Assembly (NCBI GenBank): GCA_964612895.1
Contig: CAZTFL010000001.1
Span: 265,043-329,042, forward strand
DNA: 64,000 bases
Direction of reading: 5' to 3'
Origin: Candidatus Woesearchaeota archaeon
GTDB taxonomy: Archaea; Nanobdellota; Nanobdellia; Pacearchaeales; GW2011-AR1
The notes beneath the pieces were generated by a model that was given only the letters and a program-made list of their open reading frames with translations, had not been told where the DNA came from and made no database searches. The translations under genes were made by a program, and so were the position numbers. Of this stretch, positions 1,501 to 64,000 are shown in pieces. Numbering within the stretch: position 1 is the stretch's first letter; each line of letters begins with the position of its first letter.

Positions 1501-2661
1501 ATGAAACGGAGTGCAATTAATCATAAAATAAGATACCAAAACTGGAAAAATAATTATGGTAAGAGAATTCCAGATATCAGTGAAGAAAATTCAAAAATAA
1601 TATTAAATTATATTAATGATATGGAATATGGTCTTAATGTTGGAAAAAGTAGTAAAAAAGGAGGTAGAAGTTATAACCGACTTTATAATTTACAACAGAG
1701 GATGGTTTTCATAACAAAAAGATTAGAATCTTTCTATGGAGTAAAAGATTTAACTAAAATAGAAGAAAGAGAAATTCATGAATTTTTTACTGGAATGAAA
1801 AGTGGTGAAATAAAAAGAGTAGATGGTGGTATATATCAAGATCCTGCAAATTTTGTTAAAATTTTTAAAGCTTTTTGGCATTGGCATCAGAAAGTTAATC
1901 GTAAAAAAGGAATCGAAATTTATGATATTACTCAAGACTTAGATACTAGTGTTGATAAACCAAAATGGGTTTACTTAACTGAAGAAGAAATAAGGCTTCT
2001 TTATGATAAAGCTCAATATCATTACAAAGTATTAATAATGTTTCTTTTTGATACTGGGATAAGAGCTCCTAGTGAATTAATTAATATTAAAGTTTCAGAC
2101 TTTCAAAATAATTTTAAAGAATTAATAATTAGAGATGAAATAAGTAAAACTTTTGGAAGAAGAATAAAATTAATGATTTGTTCTGACATTATACGAGGTT
2201 ATATCAAAAATGAATCTTTAAAAAATGATGATTTTTTATTTAATCGAAGATCTGATACTATTAACCAATATTTACAGAGATTAGCTAAACGAGTATTGGG
2301 AGAGAAAAAAAGTCCTGCTGGCCAAAGATATTCTGAATTAACAATGTATGACTTCAGACATTGTAGTTGTTGTTATTGGTTACCAAGATATAAATCTGAA
2401 TCTGCATTAAAATATAGATTTGGTTGGAAAAAGTCAGATAAGATTCATTATTATTCTGAACTTTTAGGGATGAGAGATACTATAAGTGAAGAAGATATGT
2501 TAATAGATGTAACTAAAACAGAAATTGAAAAACAATTAACTAAATCTGAAAATAAAAATGAAATATTACAAGAAAGAGTTGATATCTTAGAAAAACAAAT
2601 GAAGATATTAGCAGAAGCAACACAAAGAATTTTATTGAAAAGTCAAGGATATTTATGTTAA
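1501..2661 (+). CDS. Tyrosine recombinase / phage-type integrase
   Basis: LFDTGIRAPSEL matches box I with the conserved Arg. DFRHCSCCYWL matches the H-x-x-R box. IHYYSELLG fits the catalytic Tyr region. The C-terminal coiled-coil tail is atypical. Confidence 0.7.
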   Translation: MKRSAINHKIRYQNWKNNYGKRIPDISEENSKIILNYINDMEYGLNVGKSSKKGGRSYNRLYNLQQRMVFITKRLESFYGVKDLTKIEEREIHEFFTGMKSGEIKRVDGGIYQDPANFVKIFKAFWHWHQKVNRKKGIEIYDITQDLDTSVDKPKWVYLTEEEIRLLYDKAQYHYKVLIMFLFDTGIRAPSELINIKVSDFQNNFKELIIRDEISKTFGRRIKLMICSDIIRGYIKNESLKNDDFLFNRRSDTINQYLQRLAKRVLGEKKSPAGQRYSELTMYDFRHCSCCYWLPRYKSESALKYRFGWKKSDKIHYYSELLGMRDTISEEDMLIDVTKTEIEKQLTKSENKNEILQERVDILEKQMKILAEATQRILLKSQGYLC

Positions 2662-2727
2662 AAAAACCACAAACTTAAATATATCTTTTTCTTAAAAAAT
2701 TAAAGAGGCACAATTATTTTATTAAAC

Positions 2728-5304
2728 ATGAAATTAAAAAAATTAAATAATAAATCTATTAAAATAATACTTCTTTTATTAATCTTCATCTCATTATCAT
2801 TAGGAATAGCATATGCTTCTGGAGCATTCTTAGGAGGAAGTAATGAAGTCTCCTTAACAAAAGGATTAGTCGGACACTGGAAATTAGACGAAGAAAGTAC
2901 GATAGATTTTACTATTAATGAATATTCTTATCCTACATTTGATACATCAAATTCAAATGGTGGATGGAGTCATTGGGGCAGGAGTGGTGCAATAGGAAGT
3001 TATTCTCAAAATACAAATAAAGATTATATTTTTAATAAATCAAATACTTATTCACATAGGGTTTCAAATGGACCTAGTGCTACAGGTGAATATCTTTTAT
3101 ATAAATCTCCATCAATCGAAGGTATTACTAATAGATCTCTTTCAGCAATTGTAAAATTAAGTGATGGAAGCCAAGTTACTAATGATAAAATCTTTCCGTC
3201 ATGGAATGCTATTACTTCAGGAAGTATTCCAAATAATATGTGGACTTCAATAGAATATTTAGGTGATGGTTTTTATTTATGTAAAGCTGAAGGTATTAAA
3301 CAAGATGGAAGTAATGATTTAGTTGGAATTTATGTTTCACCAGGCATAGAAGCTTATTTTTCTATTGTTCAATTAGAACAAAAAATCTATTCTAGTTCAT
3401 TTGTAAATGGTGCTAGAAATGGTACAATTGATGATAGAAGTGGATATTCAAATAAAGGAATTAATTATGGTGCAATTTTAACTAATGGGATAAAGGGAGA
3501 AAGTAAAGGGGCCTTAAGTTTTGATGGTATTAATGATTATATAGAATATGATGATAATAATAATCTATTTAATTCATTACCAATTAGTTTTTCTATTTGG
3601 TTTTATCAAGATGGTACTCGTAGTGGAGATTTTATTAATAAATATTATTCTGGTTCTGTTAATGGTTATAGTATTACTTTGTCTCCAACAGGAGGTATAA
3701 GACTTTATTATTTTAAAGATGCTTCAAATTATATAGAATCTTATAATGGTTATTATGGTCAACCAATATTAAATTCTTGGAATCATGTTGTTGTTAATGT
3801 TGATGAAAATAATGCGAAAATTTATTTAAATAATAATCTAGTTGTAACTAAAAATTGGGTTGGAACTTCCGGAAAACCTACAACAAATCAAAAATTATCT
3901 TTAGGTCGTTATCCTGGATCAACAAATGTTTATTCAAATAATATTATTTCAGATGCTAGAATTTATAATCGTGCCTTATCAGAAGAAGAAATAAAATTAT
4001 TATATGATTCTTATAAGCCTCAAACAACTATTGGAAATTTGAATAAAGGTTTAGTTGCACACTATCCTTTAGACGGAGGATATGAAACAAAAGATATAAC
4101 TTCATATGAAAATCATGGAACTAATTCTGGTGCAACCTTAAGTACAGGAGTAAAAGAAGAAGCAAATGGAAGTTATCTTATAGGAACAACTCAAACAATA
4201 AATATTCCTTATAAAAATCAATTGAATGTTAAAAATGCAATAACTATTTATGTTTGGTTAAAAAGAAATTCAACTTATACTCAATCGTCTGATTGTTTTT
4301 ATATTTCTAGACAACCTTCTTGGTACTTTTATGATTCTTATGGTAGTGGAGAGATTAGGGCTGAAGTATTCATAGATGGAACCCGAAGAGCAGCAAGAAC
4401 AGTATCTTTACCTTATGATAATAATTGGTATAACATTGCATATACTTACGATAGTAATACTAAAACTGGTTCTATTTATAGAAATGGATTATTTATTTCA
4501 AATATTACTTTATCTGGATTATCCAATTATTTGATTGATGATTCTTCTTCAGGTATAAATATGGGAAGCGGTGGTGCTGGGAAAAAAACATTTATGTCAG
4601 ATGTCCGTATTTATAATCGAGCATTAAGTGCAGAAGAAATAAAATTATTATATGATTCTTATAATCCTCAAACAACAGTAGCTTCATTAAATAAAGGATT
4701 AGTCTTAGACATGCCTCTAACATCAACTTGGACAAAATCTGAAACACCTGGTTCTGAAATCATAACAGATAAAACTCCTTATTCAAATAATGGGCAAAAT
4801 TATGGGACAGTACTCTCTGGTGAAGGAGCCACATTTGATGGAAGTAATGATTATATTGTAACAGGATGGGGTCAAGGACTTAATCCTTCAACAAATCCTT
4901 TAACAATAACAATGTGGGTTAAACCAAATAATGTAAATTCAGCTACTATGTTTTTTTCTAATAGACAATCGGGAGGATCAAGTAACCGTCTTTATATAAG
5001 CATATATAATGGGAAATGGGATTTAGGAATTCATACAACTACTTGGGGTAGTGGAACAATTAATGCAAATACAGACTGGAATTTCATTTCAGTTGTTATG
5101 GATGGTTCCCAAGCTACAATGAAAGCAAACTTACAAACAACAAGAACAATTTCTTATGGCTCTTATAATTTAAATTTAAATGCACATTTAGGAACACATG
5201 ATCTTAATTATTGGTATAATGGATTAATTAAAAATGTTAGAATATACAATAGGGCTTTATCAGATGAAGAAATAAAATTACTTTATGACCAAGGTAAAAC
5301 TTAA
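2728..5304 (+). CDS. Secreted LamG/concanavalin-A-like lectin repeat protein with signal peptide or N-terminal anchor
   Basis: N-terminal KLKKLNNKSIKIILLLLIFISLSLGIAYA is signal-like. Three or more LamG-type modules each end in the diagnostic motif (D/N)xRIYNRALS(x)EEIKLLYD. Confidence 0.6.
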   Translation: MKLKKLNNKSIKIILLLLIFISLSLGIAYASGAFLGGSNEVSLTKGLVGHWKLDEESTIDFTINEYSYPTFDTSNSNGGWSHWGRSGAIGSYSQNTNKDYIFNKSNTYSHRVSNGPSATGEYLLYKSPSIEGITNRSLSAIVKLSDGSQVTNDKIFPSWNAITSGSIPNNMWTSIEYLGDGFYLCKAEGIKQDGSNDLVGIYVSPGIEAYFSIVQLEQKIYSSSFVNGARNGTIDDRSGYSNKGINYGAILTNGIKGESKGALSFDGINDYIEYDDNNNLFNSLPISFSIWFYQDGTRSGDFINKYYSGSVNGYSITLSPTGGIRLYYFKDASNYIESYNGYYGQPILNSWNHVVVNVDENNAKIYLNNNLVVTKNWVGTSGKPTTNQKLSLGRYPGSTNVYSNNIISDARIYNRALSEEEIKLLYDSYKPQTTIGNLNKGLVAHYPLDGGYETKDITSYENHGTNSGATLSTGVKEEANGSYLIGTTQTINIPYKNQLNVKNAITIYVWLKRNSTYTQSSDCFYISRQPSWYFYDSYGSGEIRAEVFIDGTRRAARTVSLPYDNNWYNIAYTYDSNTKTGSIYRNGLFISNITLSGLSNYLIDDSSSGINMGSGGAGKKTFMSDVRIYNRALSAEEIKLLYDSYNPQTTVASLNKGLVLDMPLTSTWTKSETPGSEIITDKTPYSNNGQNYGTVLSGEGATFDGSNDYIVTGWGQGLNPSTNPLTITMWVKPNNVNSATMFFSNRQSGGSSNRLYISIYNGKWDLGIHTTTWGSGTINANTDWNFISVVMDGSQATMKANLQTTRTISYGSYNLNLNAHLGTHDLNYWYNGLIKNVRIYNRALSDEEIKLLYDQGKT
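3952..4029 (+). repeat. Intragenic direct repeat, copy 1 of 2 near-identical ~78-bp segments. Copy 2 is at about 4600-4677, and a third, diverged copy is at about 5233-5301.
   Basis: Copy 1 reads gatgctagaatttataatcgtgccttatcagaagaagaaataaaattattatatgattcttataagcctcaaacaac. Copy 2 reads gatgtccgtatttataatcgagcattaagtgcagaagaaataaaattattatatgattcttataatcctcaaacaac. Confidence 0.7.
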
Positions 5305-5446: not shown

Positions 5447-6304
5447 ATGGAAAGAATTAATACACGTTCTGTTTACATTGATTTCAAGAATAAAGGATTA
5501 TTAGAAAAGAAATTTAATATTAATAATAGACTCTTAACTGCATATATTATTCCTAGAACACTGGTGTCGGAAGCAAAAAAATTTTTTGAAGATAATATAA
5601 TCAATAATCGAGGTATTTACTATTTAATTGAAGAAGATGAAAATAGTCCATTACAAAAAATTTATGTTGGACAAACAATTAATGGTATAAAAAGATTAGA
5701 TGATCACTTGAAGAAAAAAAATTATTGGGGCAAGGCAATAATGTTTTTATTTGATCATAATGAGGATAATGATATCGATCTTAATGCTTTAGAAACTTAT
5801 GCTCTATCTAAATTAATAGAGCTAAGAAAATATGATGTTCAAAAATATGACGTTCAAAATAAGCAAATAACCGATAACAAAATGGATTATAATAAGACAG
5901 ATGTAATAAAAAAATGTTATAATTTAATTAAATTTTTAATGATCTCTTCAGGATATTCTTTAGAGTCAAATCAAAATAATAGTTCTATATTTAGAACAAA
6001 CAGAAGAGGAATAATTGGTTTAGGAATATATACTGGAAATTCTTTTGAATTAATTCAAGGTTCTGAAATTGATGTAAATATCCGATGTAACTTGGATAAA
6101 TATAATCAAATGCGTGAAGAGCTAATAAACGAGAATATATTAGTTAAAGAGGGTGAAAAATATATCCTAAAAAAGAATTTAGAATTTAAAACTCCAAGTG
6201 GAGCAAGTGATTTTGTTTTAGGTGGTGCTACCAATGGATGGACTGAGTGGAAAAACAATGAGAATAAAACATTAGATGAAGTTTATAGAAAAATAAATAA
6301 TTAA
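5447..6304 (+). CDS. GIY-YIG superfamily nuclease-domain protein (T5orf172/DUF4357-like). Possible restriction endonuclease partner of the adjacent MTase.
   Basis: The motif RGIYYLIEEDENSPLQKIYVGQT has GIY, a 13-aa spacer, then YVG. It is followed by KRLDDH, which supplies the conserved Arg. The gene is convergent with the MTase at 6429-7073. Confidence 0.45.
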   Translation: MERINTRSVYIDFKNKGLLEKKFNINNRLLTAYIIPRTLVSEAKKFFEDNIINNRGIYYLIEEDENSPLQKIYVGQTINGIKRLDDHLKKKNYWGKAIMFLFDHNEDNDIDLNALETYALSKLIELRKYDVQKYDVQNKQITDNKMDYNKTDVIKKCYNLIKFLMISSGYSLESNQNNSSIFRTNRRGIIGLGIYTGNSFELIQGSEIDVNIRCNLDKYNQMREELINENILVKEGEKYILKKNLEFKTPSGASDFVLGGATNGWTEWKNNENKTLDEVYRKINN

Positions 6305-48095: not shown

Positions 48096-48607
48096 TTTCC
48101 CTGTACTCCTATGTATTTACTTTGTTCTAATAATATTTTTTTATCTGGAGACAAACTTACATTTTCTATAAAATGACTTTCGTTATCGTAAACTTCAACA
48201 TTAAGAATTACACTTCCTGCATTTAGTACATTATAACCATTTTCTCCTTTTACTATATTTAATATAACAGAATCTTTTATCGTTAATGTTCTTATTTCAC
48301 TTTGTGTTATTCCTATAACTTTCCAGTAATATATATTTGGTTCTAATGAAAGTGAAAGATTTTTGTTTAAATCATATTCTTTAGGATTTGTAAAATTCAA
48401 ATCTGTATCAACTATTAATTTGTCTGCGTTTTTTATAGAGAATAAAATGTTTCCACCTAAAGATTCATAGTTATCAATTGGAGCTATTACTAATGGAGTA
48501 GAAATTCCTATAATCCACATTACAGCAAATAAACTCCCAAATATCAAAAAACTATCCATTATTTTAATCATCGGATTCTGACGTCGGACATCGGATTTTC
48601 TTATCAT
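48092..48607 (-). CDS. Hypothetical membrane/exported protein in the surface-protein operon
   Basis: 171 aa with N-terminal hydrophobic segment IFGSLFAVMWIIGISTPLVIA. It overlaps both neighbours by 4 nt. Confidence 0.4.
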   Translation of the reverse strand: MIRKSDVRRQNPMIKIMDSFLIFGSLFAVMWIIGISTPLVIAPIDNYESLGGNILFSIKNADKLIVDTDLNFTNPKEYDLNKNLSLSLEPNIYYWKVIGITQSEIRTLTIKDSVILNIVKGENGYNVLNAGSVILNVEVYDNESHFIENVSLSPDKKILLEQSKYIGVQGK

Positions 48608-51600
48608 GCTTCTGTCTCCGCAAATTTAGCTTCAAATACTACCGTAGAACTCTTTAATCCTGGACCTTCATTTGGCGGCACTTCTAAATGAATATCTATT
48701 TCGGCTGAATCATTATTATCGTGAAAATCAAGAGAATCAATTATAGTAACTCTTCCTGTTATACTCATATTTACCCAATTAAATAATGATGTTAACCATT
48801 TGAATGCTCCTTCTTCTCCTGTTCTATTATCTATTTTTGTTTTATAGTATTTTGATTCTGTTTGTTGACTTGTCCATATTGGTGTAGCATTTGTACTAAT
48901 GTTTATTTTTACATTTCCGTCATTTTGTATTACAAATGGTTGTGGATTTCCTGTTGATGTGTTTTTGCTTCCTAAGTATTCTATTGAACCAAAATTTATT
49001 TCACTATTTGTTAAACTTACTACAACATATGCATTTAACCTAAATGTGTTATAATTTGTCCATGGACCATATGTTTCTCCATCGTGCGCTCTAACTCTCC
49101 ATGTATAATAATATCCGTAATCTCCTAAACATTTCAAATCTTGAGTTGGTGTCCATTCATTATTATTTAAATTATTTCTTGATATATCGTCGTTACATAT
49201 TGCTGTTCCTGCACTTTTATGTTCCTCGATTTGTAATTCGTATGTTAGTGTATCTCCATCTAAATCTGTTCCTGTCCAATTAAATTCTGGTGTTCTGTTT
49301 GTTATATCTGAATTATTTGATGGTGAATTTAGGACGACTGTTGGTAAGTTATTTTTCAAACTAATTATATTTGATTCTAAACTCATTCCGTCTTCTACTA
49401 AATCATTTGGTGTTACTACAACTGACCAGTTTTCTAAGTCTACAGTTTCATAAGAAGATAAATTTTGCATCGAGTGATTATTTAATCCTGCAGTATATAT
49501 CATTTTAATTTGTTCTTCTGATAAGGAACGGTTGAAAATTAAAACTTCGTCGATTAGACCATCCCAAGGATAAGAGCCCCCTCCTGAATGTATTCCTATT
49601 TGAAAATTTTGATTAAATGTATATGATGTATAACTTTTTTGCATACTAAATGTTCCATTTACATATAATTTTGCCATTGTTCCATTCATAACTAAAGTTA
49701 TATGTGTCCAATTTGTTGTTGCGGATGTAACTGGAGAAGATCCCCAACCACTGTTCTGTATTCCCATATCCCAATATCCATTATAATGAGATAGATACAT
49801 TCTAGCATTTGCGTCAGGAGATTGTCCTAAAGACATAAACATTTTCGCTACACTTGGATTATCAGATTTCACCCACATAGAAAATGTTATTGGTTGAGTT
49901 GATGGATTCTTTCCAGCTCCATAAGGAATGTTAATATAATCATCTGTGCCGTCAAAATTATATGCTCCACCAACTTTTCCGTTAGTTGTCCATGTTGCTC
50001 CATAAACTGTTCCGTTATTCCCGTTTTTTGAATAATCTTTTGTCCACGATGATGTGCTGCCTCCTTCAAATGGCATATTTAAAACTGCTATACTATTATT
50101 GTTTACTCTCCAGTCTGTAATGTTGTAAACTGTGTCTTCTGGATCTGAATCGTGAGATTGTATTACTACAGACATATTTTCTGATGTTCTTATTCGTCCG
50201 TTTGTTGTATTTAATACGACTGAATCAACTACTGGTAAAATATTTACTCTTGACCATACTCTAGTTTCTGTTGAATTACAATTATTCGCCATATCACACG
50301 CTTTAGATGAATACCAGTGTTCTCCACGAGATAAATTCGTTATATTCATTGATAGTGACCAATCTGATTCTGAGAGTTTTTGTAAATTTGATTCGTATAA
50401 TAATTTAATTTCTGCGTCAGTTAAAGAACGATTGTATACACGAACTTCGTCCATGTGTCCGTTTAGATAATTTGCAATACTTCCACTTGCTCCAATTATT
50501 AAATCTTTATTATTATTCCAACTACTTGTTGATAGTGCACTTCCTCCTATCAAAATCCCGTCTACGTATAAATATCTTACATTGTTTCTAACAACTCCTA
50601 CTAGATGATGCCATTGATTAATGTCTGATGCCACTCTTGTTGCGTATGGAGAATTTGCTCCGTTCCAAGAGATAAACATAAAACCATTTTCTTCAAATCC
50701 GTATGCTAATCCTGCTCCTTTTAGCGTGCTGTCTCCTTTGTGTATTATTCCGTAACTTCCAACTGATTTTAGTTTTACCCAAGCAGAAACTGTAAAATTA
50801 TCTGATAAATCTAATGTTGGATTGTCGTAAACTCTAATATAATCATTTCCGTCGAAACTCATTCCTTTATTATGTTTCCCTGACTCATTATAGACTGCGC
50901 CTACGACTACTCCGTTATTTCCTGTTCCTGAAATATCTCTGACGAATGTATTATTTTCTTCTAAGCTTGTTAAGTTTTGGAAGTTCATAGCGAGAACTAA
51001 TCCGTTTCCTAAAGAACTGAAATTTGTATTATCTAATGTAAAATTTAAATCTCTCAAACTGTAATCTATTACTTCTACTTTTATATTCGTATAAGAATTT
51101 GGCGTTTGTGTTTCGTTTGTTGGTGTTGGTGATACGAATCTTATTTGTGGGGATCCACTATCTATATAAAATGGTCCTAATCTTGTAACATTTCCGGCAT
51201 TTCCGGCGCCATCCAATGCTTTAATATGGAAATAATTAACTCCTTCATTTAATGAACAGGTAAAATTTGTTTGTGTTGTATTTATAATATTATTTGGAAG
51301 TGATCTTTCCCAATCATCACATATAACTGAATACCCAGCAACACCTGTTGTTATTGATTGGTTTTTTATTTCGTATATTTTTACTGAATTTATTGTAATA
51401 TCTTTTGCAGAGCTTGAAGCAAAATCATCTAATAATATTTTTCTTAAGCCTTCTGTTGTTGGTGTGTAGGTAAATTCGTAAACTCCTGTTGCTGTAAAAT
51501 TTGGCGCTGTATTTTGCCAGGCTAACATTCCTGCATTAATTGTTAAGTTTAAGATTACTCTATATGGTTTATTTAGTTCCATTATATTTGTTGTTGAAAG

Positions 51601-54600
51601 CATATATGTATCAGAACCGCCTGCGCCATAGTATATTCTTGGTTTATTGTTTGCTCCAACTTCCCACTGTCCTGCGTTTGCTGTCCATCCCGACCATTTC
51701 GACGACATAGGATTTGTTGCTGTGTAATTTGAAAAATCTCCGTTATAAACTAAATTATCTTCATTTCCTTCTTTATCTTGAGTTCTAACATAGTAAAAAT
51801 AATCATCTCCTGTGTCTGTTGAGGCTGTCCAGTTAAAAATTGCTGAATTAAATGTGTAGAAACCGCCAACTGAAACGTTCGGAGATGATAAACTTGAAAC
51901 GTTTGAAGGAGATTTAATGTCTGAAGATGTGAATTCTAAATAATTTGATTTTGAGATATTTTCTCCGTTAACTGTTAATTTTAAATTATCAATTATCGTT
52001 GTGTATGTAGAATCTTGAGCATAATTTACTCCCATACTAAATTTTACAAACTTTGTACCATGCCAGAATTTATTATTATTAGTACTGTATAATGCTTCTC
52101 CTTTTATTGTACCACTTTTTTGCGTCCAAGAAAATGGAATTAAACTTCCAGAACTTGCTGTGTAAATATCTCCACCACTTGTGTGCATTCTTATTTTTGT
52201 TCCGGCAGAATATGTTTTTCCGACTGTAGTTCCGAATTCAATTTCACAATAATCTCCCATATTTTGAACTCTTGTAATATTTCCATTTCCTAAATCTCTA
52301 TTAGGTAAATCTGCATAGTTTCCTGAATCGTCTACGTTAAACGCTATACGACCATGATTTAATACATACCAATTGGTACAATTTTTTATTTTTACTATTT
52401 TATCTGTTGATTTTATATCTTCATATAATTCAGTATGTGTTCCACCCACAGTATTAACATTCGCAGCACCTATACTTTGTTTGTTTTGATCATAACCAAC
52501 AAATCCGAAATATAATCTACTTTGTCCACCTGTTCCATTTGATTTAAACATTCCGGACAATATATATTCAGAAGTATTATCCACTGGAATTAAATCTGTT
52601 GTATAAAGCCATTTATTTCCTATTTCATAAAATGCGTAATTTCCTTGATAAGAATCTGTAGTTACTCCGTCAAATCCGAAATTTGTTAGAGTTCCAAGTT
52701 CTGCATCTCCATTTATTATTGGTAAGTTTACGTCCAAATATTGTCCTGTTTGTGTTTCTGAACGATAAAGTTTATGTTTAATTAATCCGGATTGCATATC
52801 GTTTATAATTTCTTTTTGTGTAAGAGAACGATTGTATACACGAAGTTCGTCTAATTTTCCTTTAAACCATTGTCTTTGATTCCATGCACCTATTTGTGAA
52901 TATATTGGAATTGTTCTTAAAACACTAGAAGTATTTACTAAAACTCCATCTAAATACAATGTTTGTCTTGTAGAATTTTGAACTAATGAAAAATGATGCC
53001 AATTATTAAGAGTATAATAAGCACTTGCTCCTCCAGAATACATTACTAATCTACTTGTGCCACTCCAAATACTTTCAAATTCAAAACCTGAAGAAGGAGG
53101 CCTACTTCCTAATATAGTTCCCCATGATCCAGAAACATCAGTTCTATAAAACCAACCCGATAATGTATAAACAGATAGAGCTGTTGAAAGAGTTATATTA
53201 ATATAATCATCTGTTCCGTCGAAACTTAAAGCTCCACCATTACCTTCTTTTCCAGATGTCCAAGTTGGATTTCCATTCATTATTCCGTGATATTCATTCC
53301 CGCTCCAATCGTATGCTATTGTTCCGTTTCCTTCTTCAAATGGCATGTATAAAACTAATCCGTTGTCTTGTGCGTCTATTTTAACGTCTATTTTGTTTGT
53401 AGATGAATTTGCTATTGGTATTAACAATGGATTGATTGGTTTTGTTCTGTCGGCTGTTATGTTGTATGCAGTATTACTATAACCTGAATATGTTCCTCCT
53501 ATGAAACTTCTTATTTTATAAAAATATATTGAATTATCTAATAAGTTATCGTCTAAATATATTTCTGTGTTTTCTGATGTCGTGTTTATTTCATTGAATG
53601 TTGAATTGTCCGGACTTCTTTCTATAGAGAAACCGTCTTCTCCACTTGAACTATCTACCCAAGTTAAATTTAGAGCTCCTTTTCCGGAATTTAATACTTT
53701 ATCATTAATTACACTAACGTTTAAGCTGGATGGGGACATATCTATTGTCAGATTTCTTGTAGATGAGTTTGTATTTCCCGCTAAATCTTGAGAGTAAATT
53801 GTATAATTATAAAATCCGTTTCCGATATCTTGAAAATTGTTCCCGTATTGATTTGATTGCGCGTTATAAATTGATTTTATTTCTGAGTCGGATAAAGCAC
53901 GATTAAAAATCATAACGTCGTCAAGAGAGCCGTTGAGCCAATAATTTCCTCCGCCTAACCTTGCAGTTGCTATTGTTTGAGGAACATAATTTAAATTCCA
54001 AGTTCCAGTATTGTCTAAGACTCCATCTACATATATTTTTGTATTAGATGAAGGTTTTGTCCCATCAAATGTTACTGTAATATGATACCATTGCTTTGCG
54101 TTCCAGGTATTTTTTATACTATTTAACGTATAGTAAGTTCCTGCATTATCTTTAATTTCCCAATATAACTTATTAACACCTTTCTGGAAAGATAAAAAAT
54201 ATGCTCTTTGTGTATCAACATCCCTTTTCCCAATTAATTGAGGATATTCACTAACTTGTCCAGATGGAATTTGATTTAAATTTACCCATAAAGATATTGT
54301 TTCTGATGTTGTTGGATTAATAACGCTACTATTTCCTAAATTTATATAATCGTTTCCGCCAAATTCATACGCTAACCCTCTTTTCCCGCCGGTCACACTT
54401 GGACAAGATGCGCCTGAACATGTTCCATTATTTCCATATTTTGATGAATCAATAAATGTTATACCATCTGTTGTTTCTTCTAACTTCCACCATCCAACTA
54501 GTGAATTATTGAAATCTAAGAATGCTGAATGTTCTCCTGCGGCGTCGGACGATGTTGCGTTTATTGTAAAATAAGAATTTTGTAGCGTAGAATTACTTGC

Positions 54601-55137
54601 TGGTGTACTTCCACTAAAATATACGTTTGGTGTTACATTGTCTACATTAAAACTTACTGTGTCTTTTCCTATGTTGTTTGCCGAATCGTTACAATAAACG
54701 GCCCAGTTGTTTTTTCCTATTACGGTTTTTGAATATATATTTGTCCAGTTTGTTCCAGCGACAAGGGCTGTTGAGTTTGTTATTCCATTATCTTTACTAT
54801 ACCAACAATAAAGCGCTGTGGCATCTACTGTATAGTTCAAATTTCCTATGAGACTATAATATAAATTATCTCGAACTGGATAAGTTATCTGAACATTTGA
54901 GGATGTTGTATCTATTCCATAAAATAATCCTACAAAATTGTTAAAATTTAAAGATGAAATAACTCCTGATAAAATTCCTAAGGCTGTTTTTGATAAAAAA
55001 TTTGATGAGTTTGTTTGTGTTCCACCTGAAGAGACGACCGCAGCGTCTATATTATAGTTTGTACTATTAATTCCTGCACAAACAAACCCTATCCCAAATA
55101 GAAAAATAAAAATTCCTAGAACTAATTTATTTTCCAT
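48604..55137 (-). CDS. Giant secreted surface protein (2177 aa) with multiple LamG/ConA-like jelly-roll and Ig/FN3-like domains
   Basis: N-terminal signal VLGIFIFLFGIGFVCAG. There are at least four LamG terminal motifs: DDVMIFNRALSDSEIKSIY, DELRVYNRSLTQKEI, DEVRVYNRSLTDAEIKLLYE and DEVLIFNRSLSEEQIKMIY. Confidence 0.7.
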   Translation of the reverse strand: MENKLVLGIFIFLFGIGFVCAGINSTNYNIDAAVVSSGGTQTNSSNFLSKTALGILSGVISSLNFNNFVGLFYGIDTTSSNVQITYPVRDNLYYSLIGNLNYTVDATALYCWYSKDNGITNSTALVAGTNWTNIYSKTVIGKNNWAVYCNDSANNIGKDTVSFNVDNVTPNVYFSGSTPASNSTLQNSYFTINATSSDAAGEHSAFLDFNNSLVGWWKLEETTDGITFIDSSKYGNNGTCSGASCPSVTGGKRGLAYEFGGNDYINLGNSSVINPTTSETISLWVNLNQIPSGQVSEYPQLIGKRDVDTQRAYFLSFQKGVNKLYWEIKDNAGTYYTLNSIKNTWNAKQWYHITVTFDGTKPSSNTKIYVDGVLDNTGTWNLNYVPQTIATARLGGGNYWLNGSLDDVMIFNRALSDSEIKSIYNAQSNQYGNNFQDIGNGFYNYTIYSQDLAGNTNSSTRNLTIDMSPSSLNVSVINDKVLNSGKGALNLTWVDSSSGEDGFSIERSPDNSTFNEINTTSENTEIYLDDNLLDNSIYFYKIRSFIGGTYSGYSNTAYNITADRTKPINPLLIPIANSSTNKIDVKIDAQDNGLVLYMPFEEGNGTIAYDWSGNEYHGIMNGNPTWTSGKEGNGGALSFDGTDDYINITLSTALSVYTLSGWFYRTDVSGSWGTILGSRPPSSGFEFESIWSGTSRLVMYSGGASAYYTLNNWHHFSLVQNSTRQTLYLDGVLVNTSSVLRTIPIYSQIGAWNQRQWFKGKLDELRVYNRSLTQKEIINDMQSGLIKHKLYRSETQTGQYLDVNLPIINGDAELGTLTNFGFDGVTTDSYQGNYAFYEIGNKWLYTTDLIPVDNTSEYILSGMFKSNGTGGQSRLYFGFVGYDQNKQSIGAANVNTVGGTHTELYEDIKSTDKIVKIKNCTNWYVLNHGRIAFNVDDSGNYADLPNRDLGNGNITRVQNMGDYCEIEFGTTVGKTYSAGTKIRMHTSGGDIYTASSGSLIPFSWTQKSGTIKGEALYSTNNNKFWHGTKFVKFSMGVNYAQDSTYTTIIDNLKLTVNGENISKSNYLEFTSSDIKSPSNVSSLSSPNVSVGGFYTFNSAIFNWTASTDTGDDYFYYVRTQDKEGNEDNLVYNGDFSNYTATNPMSSKWSGWTANAGQWEVGANNKPRIYYGAGGSDTYMLSTTNIMELNKPYRVILNLTINAGMLAWQNTAPNFTATGVYEFTYTPTTEGLRKILLDDFASSSAKDITINSVKIYEIKNQSITTGVAGYSVICDDWERSLPNNIINTTQTNFTCSLNEGVNYFHIKALDGAGNAGNVTRLGPFYIDSGSPQIRFVSPTPTNETQTPNSYTNIKVEVIDYSLRDLNFTLDNTNFSSLGNGLVLAMNFQNLTSLEENNTFVRDISGTGNNGVVVGAVYNESGKHNKGMSFDGNDYIRVYDNPTLDLSDNFTVSAWVKLKSVGSYGIIHKGDSTLKGAGLAYGFEENGFMFISWNGANSPYATRVASDINQWHHLVGVVRNNVRYLYVDGILIGGSALSTSSWNNNKDLIIGASGSIANYLNGHMDEVRVYNRSLTDAEIKLLYESNLQKLSESDWSLSMNITNLSRGEHWYSSKACDMANNCNSTETRVWSRVNILPVVDSVVLNTTNGRIRTSENMSVVIQSHDSDPEDTVYNITDWRVNNNSIAVLNMPFEGGSTSSWTKDYSKNGNNGTVYGATWTTNGKVGGAYNFDGTDDYINIPYGAGKNPSTQPITFSMWVKSDNPSVAKMFMSLGQSPDANARMYLSHYNGYWDMGIQNSGWGSSPVTSATTNWTHITLVMNGTMAKLYVNGTFSMQKSYTSYTFNQNFQIGIHSGGGSYPWDGLIDEVLIFNRSLSEEQIKMIYTAGLNNHSMQNLSSYETVDLENWSVVVTPNDLVEDGMSLESNIISLKNNLPTVVLNSPSNNSDITNRTPEFNWTGTDLDGDTLTYELQIEEHKSAGTAICNDDISRNNLNNNEWTPTQDLKCLGDYGYYYTWRVRAHDGETYGPWTNYNTFRLNAYVVVSLTNSEINFGSIEYLGSKNTSTGNPQPFVIQNDGNVKINISTNATPIWTSQQTESKYYKTKIDNRTGEEGAFKWLTSLFNWVNMSITGRVTIIDSLDFHDNNDSAEIDIHLEVPPNEGPGLKSSTVVFEAKFAETEA

Positions 55138-60922: not shown

Positions 60923-61078
60923 AGATGAGAGTTTATTTCTATTAACATTAAAATTAAATATAATTTTACGAAAATAAATGAATATTCAAAAAATAAATGA
61001 ATGTGAAATAAATTGACAAACAAAATATAGTAAAGTTATTAAATACTAAATAATATTAATTATTAGGGATGTATAAAA

Positions 61079-61384
61079 ATGGGAATGATATCAGAATTTA
61101 TGGAATTTTTGAAGGAATATAAGGTAGTTGCTTTAGCAGTTGCTTTTATAATGGGTGTTGCCGCTACATCATTAATTCAATCATTAGTTAGTAATATAAT
61201 TATGCCAATAATAACCCCTATGATTCCTGGTGGAGCTTGGAAAACAGCAACACTTGTTTTAGGTCCAATAGTTATAGGATGGGGATCATTTTTAGGTGAA
61301 TTAATAAATTTTATAATTGTGGCATTTGTAGTTTTTGTGATTGCAAAAAAAGTAATGAAAGAAGAAAAGGTTACTAAAAAATAA
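61079..61384 (+). CDS. mscL: Large-conductance mechanosensitive channel MscL
   Basis: EFMEFLKEYKVVALAVAFIMGVAATSLIQSLVSNIIMP aligns with the MscL N-terminus/TM1, which is conserved as ([38 protein letters not shown]). TM2 is FIIVAFVVFVIAKKV. Confidence 0.75.
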   Translation: MGMISEFMEFLKEYKVVALAVAFIMGVAATSLIQSLVSNIIMPIITPMIPGGAWKTATLVLGPIVIGWGSFLGELINFIIVAFVVFVIAKKVMKEEKVTKK

Positions 61385-61524
61385 TTTGTTTTTTAATTTT
61401 TATAAAATGTCTATTTATTGTATTTAACATCGGGGTTTAAGGGAAGTTTATAATAGGATTTTGAGCGAAGCGTCCTTTGAATTTTTGAATTGCATATAAT
61501 GTTCACAGAACTAAGAGGGAAATT

Positions 61525-62268
61525 TTACTTGTATATATTTATCGTTTTAGATTTTCTATAAGGTTTTTGTGCAGAATTTTGGAGATGTATTTTTGTCAAA
61601 GATTCAGCAATAGAATGACAACCTGTACAAACCACAATTAAATTATTCTTATTATTATTTGATGGATTTTTATCTATGTGATGAATGTGTAATTGTCTTT
61701 TATTTTCTCCACATAACTGACAAGCATTGTCTGCCCTATTAAATAATTCTTTTTGAACATTATTCTTTATTGGAACTCTAACTTTTCTATTTAATTCTTT
61801 TTCGTCATCAAATCCTAAATCTATTGAACTTCCTTTTTTCTTTATGTATTGAGGTTTTGGTGCTTCTCCTAACCACTGGCCTTCCTCTTCTTTCCATTCT
61901 TTATCAGAACCATATTTACATTTTTTACAAATATAATAATGTCTGTCATACTTTATATCTCTCATTATTGTTTTTTGACTCCCAGGGTCATTTTCAGTTG
62001 TTCCATCAGAATATTTGTAAACTTTGGAATGATATGTATATGGTTCTTTCTTTATTCCTAAATCTTCTTTCCATTCAATATGTTCTTTTTTAAAAAAAGG
62101 TCTTTTACAATGAGGACATCTTGTGTCCCAAATAAAATAAGTTAATCCACAAAAAATGAAAGCAATTATAATGGAGGTAGTCATTAGATTTGAAGAAACG
62201 TTACTTCCAACAATAGAATAAATAACTAAACCAATCCAAATAAGACTAACAAACACGGTATAATACAA
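61525..62268 (-). CDS. Membrane-anchored zinc-ribbon plus HNH endonuclease-domain protein
   Basis: Two N-terminal TM helices. The middle has CPHCKRPFF and CKKCKYG. The C-terminal HNH motif is CQLCGENKRQLHIHHIDKNPSNNNKNNLIVVCTGCH. Confidence 0.6.
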   Translation of the reverse strand: MYYTVFVSLIWIGLVIYSIVGSNVSSNLMTTSIIIAFIFCGLTYFIWDTRCPHCKRPFFKKEHIEWKEDLGIKKEPYTYHSKVYKYSDGTTENDPGSQKTIMRDIKYDRHYYICKKCKYGSDKEWKEEEGQWLGEAPKPQYIKKKGSSIDLGFDDEKELNRKVRVPIKNNVQKELFNRADNACQLCGENKRQLHIHHIDKNPSNNNKNNLIVVCTGCHSIAESLTKIHLQNSAQKPYRKSKTINIYK

Positions 62269-62379
62269 TGGATCTTTGTAAAATGGAAGTGGTTCTGTAT
62301 TATTTATTATATAAATATTATAATTATTAATATTAAATACTTTTCTGTTTTGATTTAAGACGCCCCTTCATATTATTTT

Positions 62380-62660
62380 TTTCCGCAGAAAAAGGCACTC
62401 TGTCCGTAGGACTCGGAATCCCCCCTCGTTCGTTTCGTTTTTAGAAAATTACCCCCTTCGTTAGCCCCTGAAATTATTGAATAGAACATCGGAATTTAAC
62501 GAAGTCGTGAGTGTAGCGAACGATTTGGGTGGAGAAACCTGCAAGGTTTCGGAACCGTTAAATTCCTGTTAGTTTCCCCTGAATACTTGGAAGGGTTGAT
62601 TTTTAGTGCAACGATGCCGAAGGCAAAAACTCAAAGTTGCAAATTCTCGTTTATCAATTT
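62380..62660. ncRNA. Candidate structured non-coding RNA of unknown class: a GC-rich, hairpin-dense, non-coding stretch
   Basis: Local GC is far above the window background. Perfect hairpins include gatggt-ggga-accatc, ggaa-ccgttaaa-ttcc and aacc-tgca-aggtt. There is long-range cgttcg/cgaacg complementarity. A repeated gttag(n)cccctgaa motif occurs twice. No ORF lies in it. Identity and strand are unresolved. Confidence 0.2.
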
Positions 62661-62661
62661 A

Positions 62662-62674
62662 AGAGGGCACTTCA
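62662..62674. repeat. Left terminal inverted repeat (agagggcacttca), paired with 63584-63596
   Basis: Perfect 13-bp reverse-complement match to tgaagtgccctct at 63584-63596, read directly from the sequence. Confidence 0.8.
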
Positions 62675-62724
62675 GGATGGTGGGAACCATCAGTTTGTAG
62701 AATTAGGAGTTTGTCGCTGTTTTA

Positions 62725-63474
62725 TTATTGAGTCCTTGTTTTATCAATTACTTGGAGTTCTTGTTCTAGCATTGGATGACCAACACCAAAATAAAGTCTT
62801 CCACCTTGCAAAACTTCTGTTGCTCCAACTAGCAAATTCTGAGTTTTCTCAAATAATTCATAATTAAATGGAACATCAGTTTCTAGAACTCTTGGAAGAT
62901 TGTTTCCAGAGCGAGGTCGAGCAATATCAAAAATATAAGTTTTTGAGGTTGGATCTCTGACTACAATAAAAGAATGATTGCCTAAATCTGCTGAAGGAGA
63001 TTGTGCCTCAACTCCGCTCATATAAGAAGCAGAGTATCCATCTTGTAGAACATTTTGAAGTAGATATTGACCTAAAGAAGCTTGTTCTGCACACATTGCA
63101 ACACCCTTTAAATCAGTTAGTTTCGCTTTTTCATCATGGAATTTAGCTTTTCTTTCTAAATCGCTTGGAGGACTTTCAGGTTTTACATCCATTACTGTTT
63201 GAACTTTTCTTTGAACTGTATTTGCAACAAAGAAAAGATAAGGGTCAACTTTTGAACCTACTTGAGACAACCAATCTGTTACTGATTGTCTATGTTGCTC
63301 GTAAGCTTCTGAAATTTTTTGTGGAGAATGATAGTTATCTAATTCTCCATTGAAACTATCAAAATCTAGGGCAATTTTGGTTGTAAGCTCATCGCTAAAT
63401 ATAGAACCTCCAACAGGCAATTCTTGTCCTCTTTCTAGTCTATCTGCCCAAATACCCCTATATATCTTTTTCAT
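62725..63474 (-). CDS. Hypothetical protein with atypical composition, possibly a transglutaminase/papain-like Cys-His fold
   Basis: 249-aa ORF. It is much less Lys/Asn/Ile-rich and more GC-rich than all other genes here. GVAMCAEQASLGQYLL followed by GNHSFIVVRD loosely resembles Cys ... His-Asp transglutaminase-like cores. Confidence 0.35.
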   Translation of the reverse strand: MKKIYRGIWADRLERGQELPVGGSIFSDELTTKIALDFDSFNGELDNYHSPQKISEAYEQHRQSVTDWLSQVGSKVDPYLFFVANTVQRKVQTVMDVKPESPPSDLERKAKFHDEKAKLTDLKGVAMCAEQASLGQYLLQNVLQDGYSASYMSGVEAQSPSADLGNHSFIVVRDPTSKTYIFDIARPRSGNNLPRVLETDVPFNYELFEKTQNLLVGATEVLQGGRLYFGVGHPMLEQELQVIDKTRTQ

Positions 63475-63583
63475 ACTATTATAGTGTAAGAGCTGGTTTT
63501 AAATGTTTCGTTTTGTTACTACTATCAGGTGTCTAATTAACAAGGCGACAAGCTCCATTTTAGGGGCGGGTGGTCGGGGGAAT

Positions 63584-63596
63584 TGAAGTGCCCTCT
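63584..63596. repeat. Right terminal inverted repeat (tgaagtgccctct), paired with 62662-62674
   Basis: See left repeat. Confidence 0.8.
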
Positions 63597-63740
63597 CCTA
63601 TCTTTTAACTCAAAATTTAGAGAATTTGCAATTGAAACTAACATAGATTAAACGAACTTTTATTCTGAGGACATTTCGTTTAATCTTCCTATTTATCCTA
63701 AAAAGAGAATAAATCTTTTATTTTATCTATACAAAATTCT

Positions 63741-64000
63741 ATTATGAGTTATACATTACCTATTGATACTTTTATTTCAAAACTGCAAGAAAGAATTAAA
63801 CTAAGAGAATTTAGTGAACAAACTAAGAAAAGTTATTGCTATCATGTTAAGGATTTTCTATTATTTTTAGATAAAAGTAGACTTAATCTGAACGAAGAAG
63901 GAATTAAGTCATATCTACTTTCTCTTAATTTATCAAATAATTCTGTTCGTCTAAAAATTATGGCTATTAAATTTTTCTTCTTGGAAGTGCTAAAAAGTCC
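63741..64000 (+). CDS. XerC/XerD-like tyrosine recombinase, N-terminal SAM-like domain only (truncated by the window end)
   Basis: Own translation: MSYTLPIDTFISKLQERIKLREFSEQTKKSYCYHVKDFLLFLDKSRLNLNEEGIKSYLLSL. This matches the N-terminal core-binding domain pattern of Xer/phage integrases. No stop before 64000. Confidence 0.5.
   Translation, partial: MMSYTLPIDTFISKLQERIKLREFSEQTKKSYCYHVKDFLLFLDKSRLNLNEEGIKSYLLSLNLSNNSVRLKIMAIKFFFLEVLKS

Follow-up and report, generated by a model that had tools for sequence, protein, structure and literature searches.

A GC-rich island in an archaeal genome as a probable part of an integron-like, XerA-linked cassette array with hairpin-forming DNA sites

A stretch of 64,000 nucleotides (nt) from a Candidatus Woesearchaeota archaeon of the lineage Pacearchaeales (contig CAZTFL010000001.1, positions 265,043 to 329,042), here called the window, ends within the gene for a XerA-type tyrosine recombinase. 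A GC-rich, non-coding island precedes this gene by about one kilobase. The island is probably DNA-level machinery of a gene cassette array rather than a single RNA gene. With moderate confidence, the locus is explained as an integron-like, XerA-linked cassette array, composed of attC-like folded-DNA sites and cassette-end modules. The fold of the sites, the covariation of their helices, the matching cassette ends, the homology breakpoints and the polar linkage to xerA are established. Coordinates are those of the window, and other contigs are given by L numbers; the contigs related to the locus are named Pacearchaeota and Woesearchaeota.

The window is AT-rich, with a mean GC content of 0.275 (standard deviation 0.058 in 150-nt windows). 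Its longest run of 150-nt windows with GC of at least 0.42 is 62343-62695 (span 0.42-0.47, about 0.45), and 200-nt windows across 62400-62699 give 0.435-0.45. Open reading frames (ORFs) in 62350-62660 are merely mechanical (31-38 aa). An original prediction, made from the letters alone, had described a GC-rich stretch of about 300 bp without a real ORF, and the island bears this out at about 0.45 against 0.275. The prediction also held that the stretch abuts a gene cassette, forms structure and is non-coding, all of which stands; the element is conserved as well. The local hairpins it named are all present, one of them (gatggtgggaaccatc) just outside 62350-62660, as is its repeated gttag..cccctgaa motif. 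Folded as a whole, the 376-nt stretch does no better than its shuffles (RNA minimum free energy z: + strand +0.71, - strand -0.55). The sub-element 62476-62582, folded as single-stranded DNA (ssDNA), reaches z -3.19 (+ strand) and -2.75 (- strand). Contig comparison divides 62340-62718 into three modules with separate histories: a site termed H1, the 3' frame of cassette 1, and the start of cassette 2 with a remnant.

Site H1 is the paradigm of a family. On the - strand it reads GAAACTAAC-AG-L''(62556-62565)-GTTCC-hairpin A (62534-62550)-TCCACCCAAA-hairpin B (62505-62523)-CTT-L'(62492-62501)-CGAT-GTT. The complete element, in cassette sense, is ..nnnnnnAAC-AG-L'' (8-11 nt)-ACTAC-hairpin A-TCCGTCCAAAT-hairpin B-CTT-L'-CGAT-GTTnnnnnn, in which CGAAC or CAAAC can take the place of CGAT and hairpin A is usually GAAACC-TTGCA-GGTTTC. 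Family sites span 80-150 nt and have an L-box stem of 8-11 bp (10 bp in H1). The AAC-AG-L''...L'-CGAT-GTT layout is found in H1 and in sites of L010, L013, L030, L032, L035 and L036. The spacer is asymmetric, with AG facing CGAT, CGAAC or CAAAC, so that a 2-3-nt bulge results and the canonical spacing of about 5 nt is absent. The L-box stem of H1, a 10-bp pairing of 62492-62501 with 62556-62565, replaces a ggaa..ttcc pairing of the original prediction, which comparison does not support. A second predicted pairing, cgttcg...cgaacg, consists of strings that are indeed present; as a helix it crosses the cassette border 62487/62488 and is missing at the homologous L010 locus.

A covariance model, R1, was built from six site copies (alignment A1). 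It has exactly one match in the window, H1 (81 bits, E 2.5e-14), and finds sites outside its training set at E<0.01 in L035 (five), L036 (four) and L037 (one), with a further site in L013 at E 0.017. Alignment A3, made with MAFFT from seven distinct sites, was scored on an author-specified three-helix structure. The share of paired cells is 89.3% (shuffles, 60.8 +/- 3.2%), and both sides change in 16 of 19 pairs (shuffles, 9.7 +/- 1.8). None of 500 shuffles matched the percentage paired, the pairs or cells changed on both sides, or the covariation score. The count of further pair types was reached by 3/500 shuffles, and all slid controls were far lower. The covariation in homologous regions, whose lack the original prediction had named as refuting, is present (16/19 pairs; 0/500 shuffles). 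In a hand-curated table of 12 sites, the L boxes comprise 10 distinct sequences, all complementary, with 116 Watson-Crick and 2 G.T pairs. Single sites folded as ssDNA give z -2.8 to -4.3, and the site fold is real at the single-strand level. The strand matching the window + strand is the more stable by 1.8-2.6 kcal/mol in four of five sites, and the few non-Watson-Crick cells are G.T on that strand. A G.U-type single change on the cassette-sense strand accounts for 1/131 cells of the A3 helices, which are thus kept Watson-Crick on both strands. This near-pure pattern is weak evidence for a DNA palindrome over a one-strand RNA helix. The family is multi-copy: one GC-rich element lies behind each of three same-strand genes in L010, and several occur in L009. 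L001 is a contig identical to the window, and in the part of it beyond the window (about 74 kb of genome in all) neither R1 nor BLAST found a further copy.

The segments between sites have matching ends. Each gene-bearing segment starts GTTnnnnnn and ends with the reverse complement, nnnnnnAAC. Scored over seven cassettes, the two ends of a cassette complement each other at 38 of 42 informative positions; ends taken from different cassettes agree at a mean of 2.05 of 6, and the permutation test gives its lowest attainable value. Six further cassettes of L035 are complementary at 4, 5, 6, 6, 6 and 5 of 6 positions; the last figure is an in-register hand count, for which a script mis-registered by 2 nt had printed 4/6. 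Examples of end pairs are GTTAGTTTC/GAAACTAAC in the window (cassette 1, whose terminal 9-mers are exact reverse complements), GTTATGCTC/GAGCATAAC in L030, GTTATGTGC/GCACATAAC around a Nudix segment of L010 and GTTGTACGA/TCGTACAAC in L013. In many cassettes the cargo gene is also enclosed by longer inverted repeats and by GC-rich frame modules.

Homology breaks at the G|TT or AAC| borders with single-base resolution. The block next to xerA is conserved up to ..CTATG in the window, L029, L030 and L032, and unrelated DNA that always starts TTnnnnTCAATT follows. About 60 nt from G|TT onwards are common to cassette two of L030 and cassette one of L032, whose left neighbours differ. The window and L010 carry the same cassette, and their homology ends directly after cgatGTT. 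L013, L014 and L016 part ways directly after ..CGTACAAC. Cassette 1, with its gene for a 249-aa protein, is also found in other contexts (L010, L009, L017). L010 (96% protein identity) is homologous to the window from the 249-aa gene to 62532; L009, L018 and L008 share 62590-63583, and L017 and L007 share 62757-63581. Distant copies of the gene (L003, L004, L006, L011, L015) have short, plain flanks. The inverted-repeat arms of L009 have changed yet are complementary (agagggcacttca/tgaagtgccctct to aaagcgaactctg/cagagttcgcttt), and L010 shows a compensatory change from ggaatttaacg/cgttaaattcc to gggcttaaccg/cggttaagccc. The right frame is kept in L010, L009, L030 and L036 with compensatory changes as well: CCCT/AGGG to CCCC/GGGG, GATGG..CCATC to ACGG..CCGT, and gccttcggc to gggctttaccc. 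A separate observation concerns L017, a Pacearchaeota metagenome-assembled genome. There the same cassette, with a 95% identical gene, lies beside a different tyrosine recombinase (1473-2309, 2310-3000), only 37% identical to the window XerA; a scaffold gap of Ns lies between, and the arrangement is uncertain.

Linkage to xerA was assessed in eight contigs chosen solely for XerA orthologues (65-100% identity): the window, L029, L030, L032, L034, L035, L036 and L037. Sites lie directly upstream of xerA in six of the eight. All 13 R1 matches at E<0.01 in xerA contigs are on the strand opposite xerA, and none is downstream of it. Genes of L035 run +,+,-,-,+,+ between sites of a single orientation. 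A cassette of L036 (398-aa gene) has the same frame modules as cassette 1 of the window (module A, the aaagaggacacttta arm, the ACGG..CCGT hairpin and GGGGTGGGTGGTCGGGGG) with the gene reversed. Site polarity follows the array, not the genes. The array head also is conserved. The xerA-proximal block is kept together with xerA in L029, L030, L032, L034 and L035. Six aligned upstream regions have an invariant core, AAC|AT..ATTA....ACTT, about 100 nt before the start codon, and beyond AAC the sequence is unrelated in each contig. This is the arrangement of an attI-type site: a conserved block ending ..ATG|TT at the array head, with variable cassettes beyond (six aligned contigs). As ssDNA the block folds with z -3.2 and -3.6. 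Near-identical half-sites (GTTTAATCAGCGATGTTATGCGACAATTTTAATTTC) of opposite orientation were noticed between xerA and the first cassette in L032 (about 5790-5850) and L036 (7770-7830), which hints at inversions or two-way insertion. A tRNA 3'-end-like string (..GCAGGTTCGAATCCTGTCCCCAGCGC..) stands at a cassette-frame edge in L036 (4567-4600).

The recombinase itself passes the NCBIfam model NF040815 recomb_XerA_Arch (222.9 bits; cut-off 220). Its best match in the PDB is Pyrococcus abyssi XerA (4a8e, E 6e-48), and it has more than 100 orthologues at 60-93% identity. Alignment to the integron integrase VchIntIA (2a3v) is split, the second stretch placing query 198-274 on chain 245-319.

The proposed mechanism is as follows. 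(i) One DNA strand, probably the window + strand, would fold in vivo. (ii) In the folded strand, the R box formed by the paired cassette ends and the L box would mimic the two arms of a tyrosine-recombinase core site, and a short unpaired stretch its spacer, as in integron attC sites or the folded attP of CTX phage. (iii) The neighbouring XerA-type enzyme would cut at the G|TT and AAC| borders. (iv) Cassettes would leave as circles and re-insert. The predicted circle junction is ..CGTTAAATTCCGATG joined to TTAGTTTCAATTG.., and the predicted deletion junction is the xerA-proximal ..CTATG joined to TTCTATTCAAT... In a variant of the proposal, exchange could take place on either side of the hairpin, which would explain both AAC| borders and the hairpin difference between the window and L010. 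A more specific claim, that a housekeeping-type XerA devoid of an integron-integrase domain runs an integron-like system of polar arrays and three-way-junction folded-DNA sites in DPANN archaea, is put forward tentatively and with considerable doubt. If true, such a system would represent a surviving stage between Xer/dif and integrons, and one of the chief ways in which genes enter and leave the reduced DPANN genomes. The IntI-less attC clusters reported from Pacearchaeales and Woesearchaeales may have the same explanation.

Several points weigh against the integron-like interpretation. The integron-integrase model TIGR02249 scores 204 bits on the recombinase, under its cut-off of 265, and in two stretches. 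One of them ends at query 183, where about 15 residues stand against an inferred 55 or so in IntIA. The protein appears to have no IntI-specific insert, and its sequence is consistent with a housekeeping XerA. Since rearrangement affects either side of xerA in these genomes, a variable flank alone is little proof. Promoters lie within the cassettes, and some cargo genes, cysK for one, are of a housekeeping type. The window holds one intact site and two decayed ones. Some right borders are at AAC|, before the hairpin (L013/L014/L016, L009), with none behind in L009, L014 and L016, and the hairpin beside one and the same cassette differs between the window and L010; a strict integron crossover at R' only is therefore insufficient. 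The stem arms in the L-box table were picked by eye, though relative to fixed anchors. Covariation suits RNA as well as it suits ssDNA. Among the comparative contigs, which are the only material, no circle junction, empty site between the same flanks or population variant was seen.

The alternative that survives best is improbable by our estimate. It follows the pdif modules of Acinetobacter plasmids: only the GTT...AAC segment would be mobile, the hairpins would be fixed platform spacers, and a recombinase would invert or swap segments between inverted core sites. Right borders that lie at AAC| and lack a following hairpin (L013 versus L014 and L016; L009), the different hairpins beside one cassette in the window and L010, and the occurrence of genes in both orientations within a constant frame would all follow. 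The hairpin fold and junction are nevertheless strongly conserved and always lie exactly between AAC and GTT, which suggests that the hairpin belongs to the substrate, and no contig pair was found with the same cassette inverted in place. Known pdif modules are alike in their small gene modules, set in series between inverted recombination sites, and in the suspicion that falls on a Xer-type recombinase. Acinetobacter pdif sites are ordinary 28-bp double-stranded XerC/XerD sites; the present ones are hairpin-forming, chromosomal and beside xerA.

Selfish GC-rich palindromic repeats, comparable to repetitive extragenic palindromes (REP), miniature inverted-repeat transposable elements (MITE) or GC clusters, are an unlikely explanation. 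Ordinary repeat-driven rearrangements would then cause the breakpoints, and XerA would be a bystander. The elements are multi-copy, modular and mosaic, with decayed copies; the genomes are rearranged either side of xerA, and module CCCCCGACCACCCRCCCC also occurs in four AT-rich viral contigs. REP and bacterial interspersed mosaic elements (BIME), like mitochondrial GC clusters, are GC-rich palindromic intergenic repeats of distinct composition that can decay. These known repeats, however, are dispersed genome-wide; they do not form polar arrays at a recombinase gene or bound cassettes of matching ends with AAC/GTT. Many dispersed copies, the mark of REP and MITE families, were not seen: the 64-kb window has one R1 copy and the rest of L001 none, so that the family is confined to this locus in the roughly 74 kb examined. 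The uniform polarity of the arrays and their start, in six of eight contigs, at the conserved xerA-upstream site also argue against this view. Complementary cassette ends and single-base G|TT breaks are unexpected from homologous recombination between repeats.

The least probable of the three alternatives is a structured RNA, that is, a transcribed three-way-junction element (3' untranslated region, antisense or small RNA) acting in processing, stability or regulation. Functional RNAs typically show compensatory helices and conservation of junction and loop bases, as seen here (TTGCA, CCAAAT), a T5 run and a hairpin lie behind the 249-aa gene, and GC-rich islands of AT-rich genomes are often RNA genes. 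The original prediction had read the island as a structured RNA of about 300 nt. The conserved, covarying structure of the sites is real; the single RNA gene has given way to a mosaic without a match in Rfam. Rfam 15 at gathering score returns two tRNAs only across the window, at E<=10 nothing relevant beyond noise over 62200-63750, and at E<=1 no match on six related loci. The prediction had likewise seen no resemblance to RNase P, signal recognition particle (SRP) RNA or transfer-messenger RNA (tmRNA), and cmscan against Rfam, the check it had proposed, found no family (E<=10). The fold of the whole region is not significant. Site orientation is set by xerA and not by adjacent genes; since it is constant relative to the recombinase gene while cassette genes run either way, a cis-acting mRNA element fits poorly. 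The invariant AAC/GTT flanks fall on homology breakpoints, and the single G.U-type change in 131 cells leaves Watson-Crick pairing on both strands, as in DNA palindromes. Under archaeal promoter rules, the TATA-like box before the 249-aa gene would put the upstream GC arm outside its mRNA. A recombination-site-associated RNA had been one option of the prediction; the link to recombination is favoured, as a DNA site rather than an RNA gene.

Other candidates were rejected outright. Neither RNase P, SRP or tmRNA nor an RNA gene interrupted by the 249-aa ORF (bulge-helix-bulge or intron) is tenable: there are no partial Rfam matches, and the 249-aa gene has a conserved promoter of its own and is found elsewhere with short plain flanks. 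CTGA boxes are present, with no C box at the right distance for a C/D-box sRNA. A diversity-generating retroelement was considered for a GC-rich motif resembling an initiation of mutagenic homing (IMH) site, and no template/variable repeat pair occurs in the window. An invertible promoter or gene switch is retained only within the pdif-like alternative: the repeats enclose promoter and gene together, so that inversion leaves expression unchanged. By eye, the xerA-proximal block contains no 11 + 6 + 11 palindrome, and a dif-like reading of it was dropped. A scan for bacterial-type promoters and terminators was at or under shuffle expectation. A generic 'AAC-stem-GTT' finder was uninformative in AT-rich DNA (281 matches versus 234 in shuffles), although it brought up the L030 and L032 sites.

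The favoured integron-like interpretation can be set beside known systems. Archaeal integrons and IntI-less attC clusters (CALINs) have been described, including in Pacearchaeales and Woesearchaeales, and a published Nanoarchaeota attC reads ACATAAC-AAATC-ATTCAACCGG..CCGGTTAAT-TCATG-GTTATGG (Ghaly et al. 2022, PMC9668308). Like attC, the present sites are imperfect palindromes: AAC...GTT boxes lie outermost, a stem follows inwards, the centre varies, and structure is kept over sequence. The cassette border is again G|TT, the 5' end of a cassette is complementary to R'' in the site belonging to it, and the strand opposite cassette sense seems to be the better folder. The array is polar from a site beside a tyrosine recombinase gene, and 92 nt is within the attC range. 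Unlike integrons, the system has a XerA-type recombinase without the IntI insert, and some of its borders are at AAC|, not G|TT alone. The two sides of its spacer measure 2 nt and 4-7 nt (about 5 and 5 in attC), and at the site centre stands a conserved three-way junction whose loops and junction strands also keep their bases. Long inverted repeats terminate its cassettes, which contain GC-rich frame modules and have promoters of their own. The likeness was read from architecture and published sequences. The locus may be of the kind counted as CALIN in PMC9668308. The supplement of Ghaly et al. has neither H1 motifs nor these contigs, only other Nanoarchaeota contigs and one canonical 59-nt attC. 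No description was found in the literature consulted of arrays headed by a conserved xerA site, of a three-way-junction site or of framed cassettes.

Xer/dif systems and integrative mobile elements exploiting Xer (IMEX) are alike in that a XerA orthologue lies beside the array and accessory genes gather at a single chromosomal locus. Palindromic as ..CATAAC / GTTATG.., the inner arms recall those of dif, and a folded single strand, proposed here as the substrate, is also that of IMEX at the attP of CTX phage. Folded single-stranded attP of this phage is said, after Val et al. 2005, to mimic dif. There are differences too. The dif site is a single-copy 28-bp sequence of two 11-nt inverted arms and a 6-nt spacer (PMC8371274). 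The present arms do not form a contiguous 11 + 6 + 11, since a hairpin of 80-150 nt lies between them; a locus holds many sites against one dif, and the cargo consists of single genes, not phages.

Integron integrases are thought to descend from Xer-type recombinases through an extra domain that reads folded attC. An attC-like array tied to a plain XerA would bring the step from Xer to integron within reach of a test that needs a single purified protein and a handful of oligonucleotides. Such an array would further reveal how ultra-small symbiotic archaea exchange accessory genes, possibly together with bacteria of the candidate phyla radiation (CPR) that have cassette genes, such as that for the 249-aa protein, in common with them. 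In GC-rich islands of AT-rich DPANN genomes an RNA gene should not be the default reading, and searches demanding an IntI gene will miss such arrays.

Table 1. Features of the array and of the GC-rich island in the window.
Feature	Position	Strand	Details
xerA-type tyrosine recombinase gene, 5' part	63744..64000	+	cut by window end; full 276 aa in L001 8901-9731
xerA-proximal block (attI-like)	63643..63743	-	hairpin arms 63646-63654 and 63677-63685; ends ..CTATG at first cassette
Cassette 1	62568..63642	-	GTTAGTTTC (63634-63642), 249-aa gene (62725-63474), GAAACTAAC (62568-62576)
Cassette 1 left frame	63544..63631	-	inverted-repeat arms 63620-63631, 63584-63596, 63544-63556; G/C motif CCCCCGACCACCCGCCCC (63563-63580)
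Cassette 1 right frame	62577..62718	-	inverted-repeat arms, hairpin GATGGTTCCCACCATC (62676-62691), module A, hairpin CCCT..AGGG (62577-62599)
Module A	62600-62629	-	T5, GCC-ttcg-GGC, CGTTGCACT
Site H1	62485..62576	-	92 nt; between cassettes 1 and 2
Cassette 2 start and remnant	62340..62487	-	GTTCTATTC (62479-62487), then GC-rich decayed cassette-end remnant at 62340-62478
Cassette 2 remnant motifs	62452-62468 (GGGGCTAAC)	-	GGGGCTAAC; TTTTTCTGCGGAAAAAA..GGGGCGTCTT
Cassette 2 cargo	61525..62184	-	membrane-anchored Zn-ribbon/HNH-like protein; 219 aa from ATG, 247 aa from upstream TTG
Degenerate third site	61420..61443	-	CCCTTAAACCC-CGAT-GTTAAATAC, without intact 5' half; after HNH-like gene
aacctgcaaggtt	62537-62549		inside hairpin 62534-62550
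ggaaccgttaaattcc	62551-62566		
gttagcccctgaa	62461-62473		
gttagtttcccctgaa	62569-62584		
gatggtgggaaccatc	62676-62691		hairpin
cgttcg	62429-62434		
cgaacg	62519-62524		

The features of the array in the window are given in table 1. The left-frame arms of cassette 1 pair with 62637-62648, 62662-62674 and 62706-62718, and an imperfect inverted repeat (62631-62727 versus 63534-63635) surrounds the 249-aa gene. A conserved TATA-like box lies about 30 nt before the ATG of this gene. Its product is a conserved hypothetical protein with 112 homologues, from sources naming 'Patescibacteria' and 'archaeon', and with no Pfam or NCBIfam family. By eye, an ordered Cys..His..Asp pattern (MCAEQA, GNHSF, IFDIA) recalls transglutaminase-like or papain-like enzymes. 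In L002, one of three assemblies with an identical 249-aa gene, the contig breaks inside module A at about 62600, adjoining H1, which could mean population variation or repeat collapse at the site. The remnant of cassette 2 resembles the 3' frame of another cassette (L009 1-176), and no intact hairpin partner was found for it. The HNH matches of the cassette 2 cargo are weak and both below cut-off (Pfam PF13392, E 9e-4; NCBIfam IscB HNH region, E 4.9e-8). The degenerate third site is an 81% direct repeat of 62474-62499 with a CGATGTT motif, and R1 missed it. Beyond it, a gene for MscL (61079-61384, + strand) is flanked by GTTATTAAATAC and GTATTTAAC (61036-61047, 61420-61428), near-matching inverted ends; it may be a third cassette, without a GC-rich hairpin. 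An RLI/ABCE1 gene is near the locus; together with the names of the related contigs, it places the organism among the DPANN archaea.

Viral contigs were scanned for two modules. The string GAAACCTTGCAGGTTTC gave one chance match, in a contig of 60% GC, and CCCCCGACCACCCRCCCC was found in four AT-rich contigs. The motif CCCCCGACCACCC(G/A)CCCC, part of the cassette frame (window 63563-63580) and a G-run on the other strand, has extended matches in AT-rich IMG/VR contigs: L023 8850-8867, L026 3955-3972, L027 13602-13619 and L028 1948-1965. By a rough estimate, its occurrence in four contigs exceeds the expectation from composition. L026, from a viral collection and with a 359-aa integrase-like ORF, has GGAGCGTAGCGGAATGA-type strings beside this motif (3980-4277). 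These strings are similar both to the centres of archaeal attC sites in the literature (..TTCCGCTGCGCTCCA..) and to module A of the DPANN sites, a hint of common ancestry across domains.

At the other end of the window, positions 720-1090 form a second GC-rich stretch (0.42-0.44 GC) without a convincing ORF. It contains ..aaatATAAC|ATTTTACCG.., like a site border, and has no R1 match. Coding repeats of about 650 nt, with ends of the ..IYNRALS.EEIKLLY.. type (window 3430-5290), occur in an 858-aa ORF (2728-5304) and recur inverted in a 2177-aa ORF (48604-55137). These encode large repeat-domain proteins of surface type, unrelated to the cassette array.

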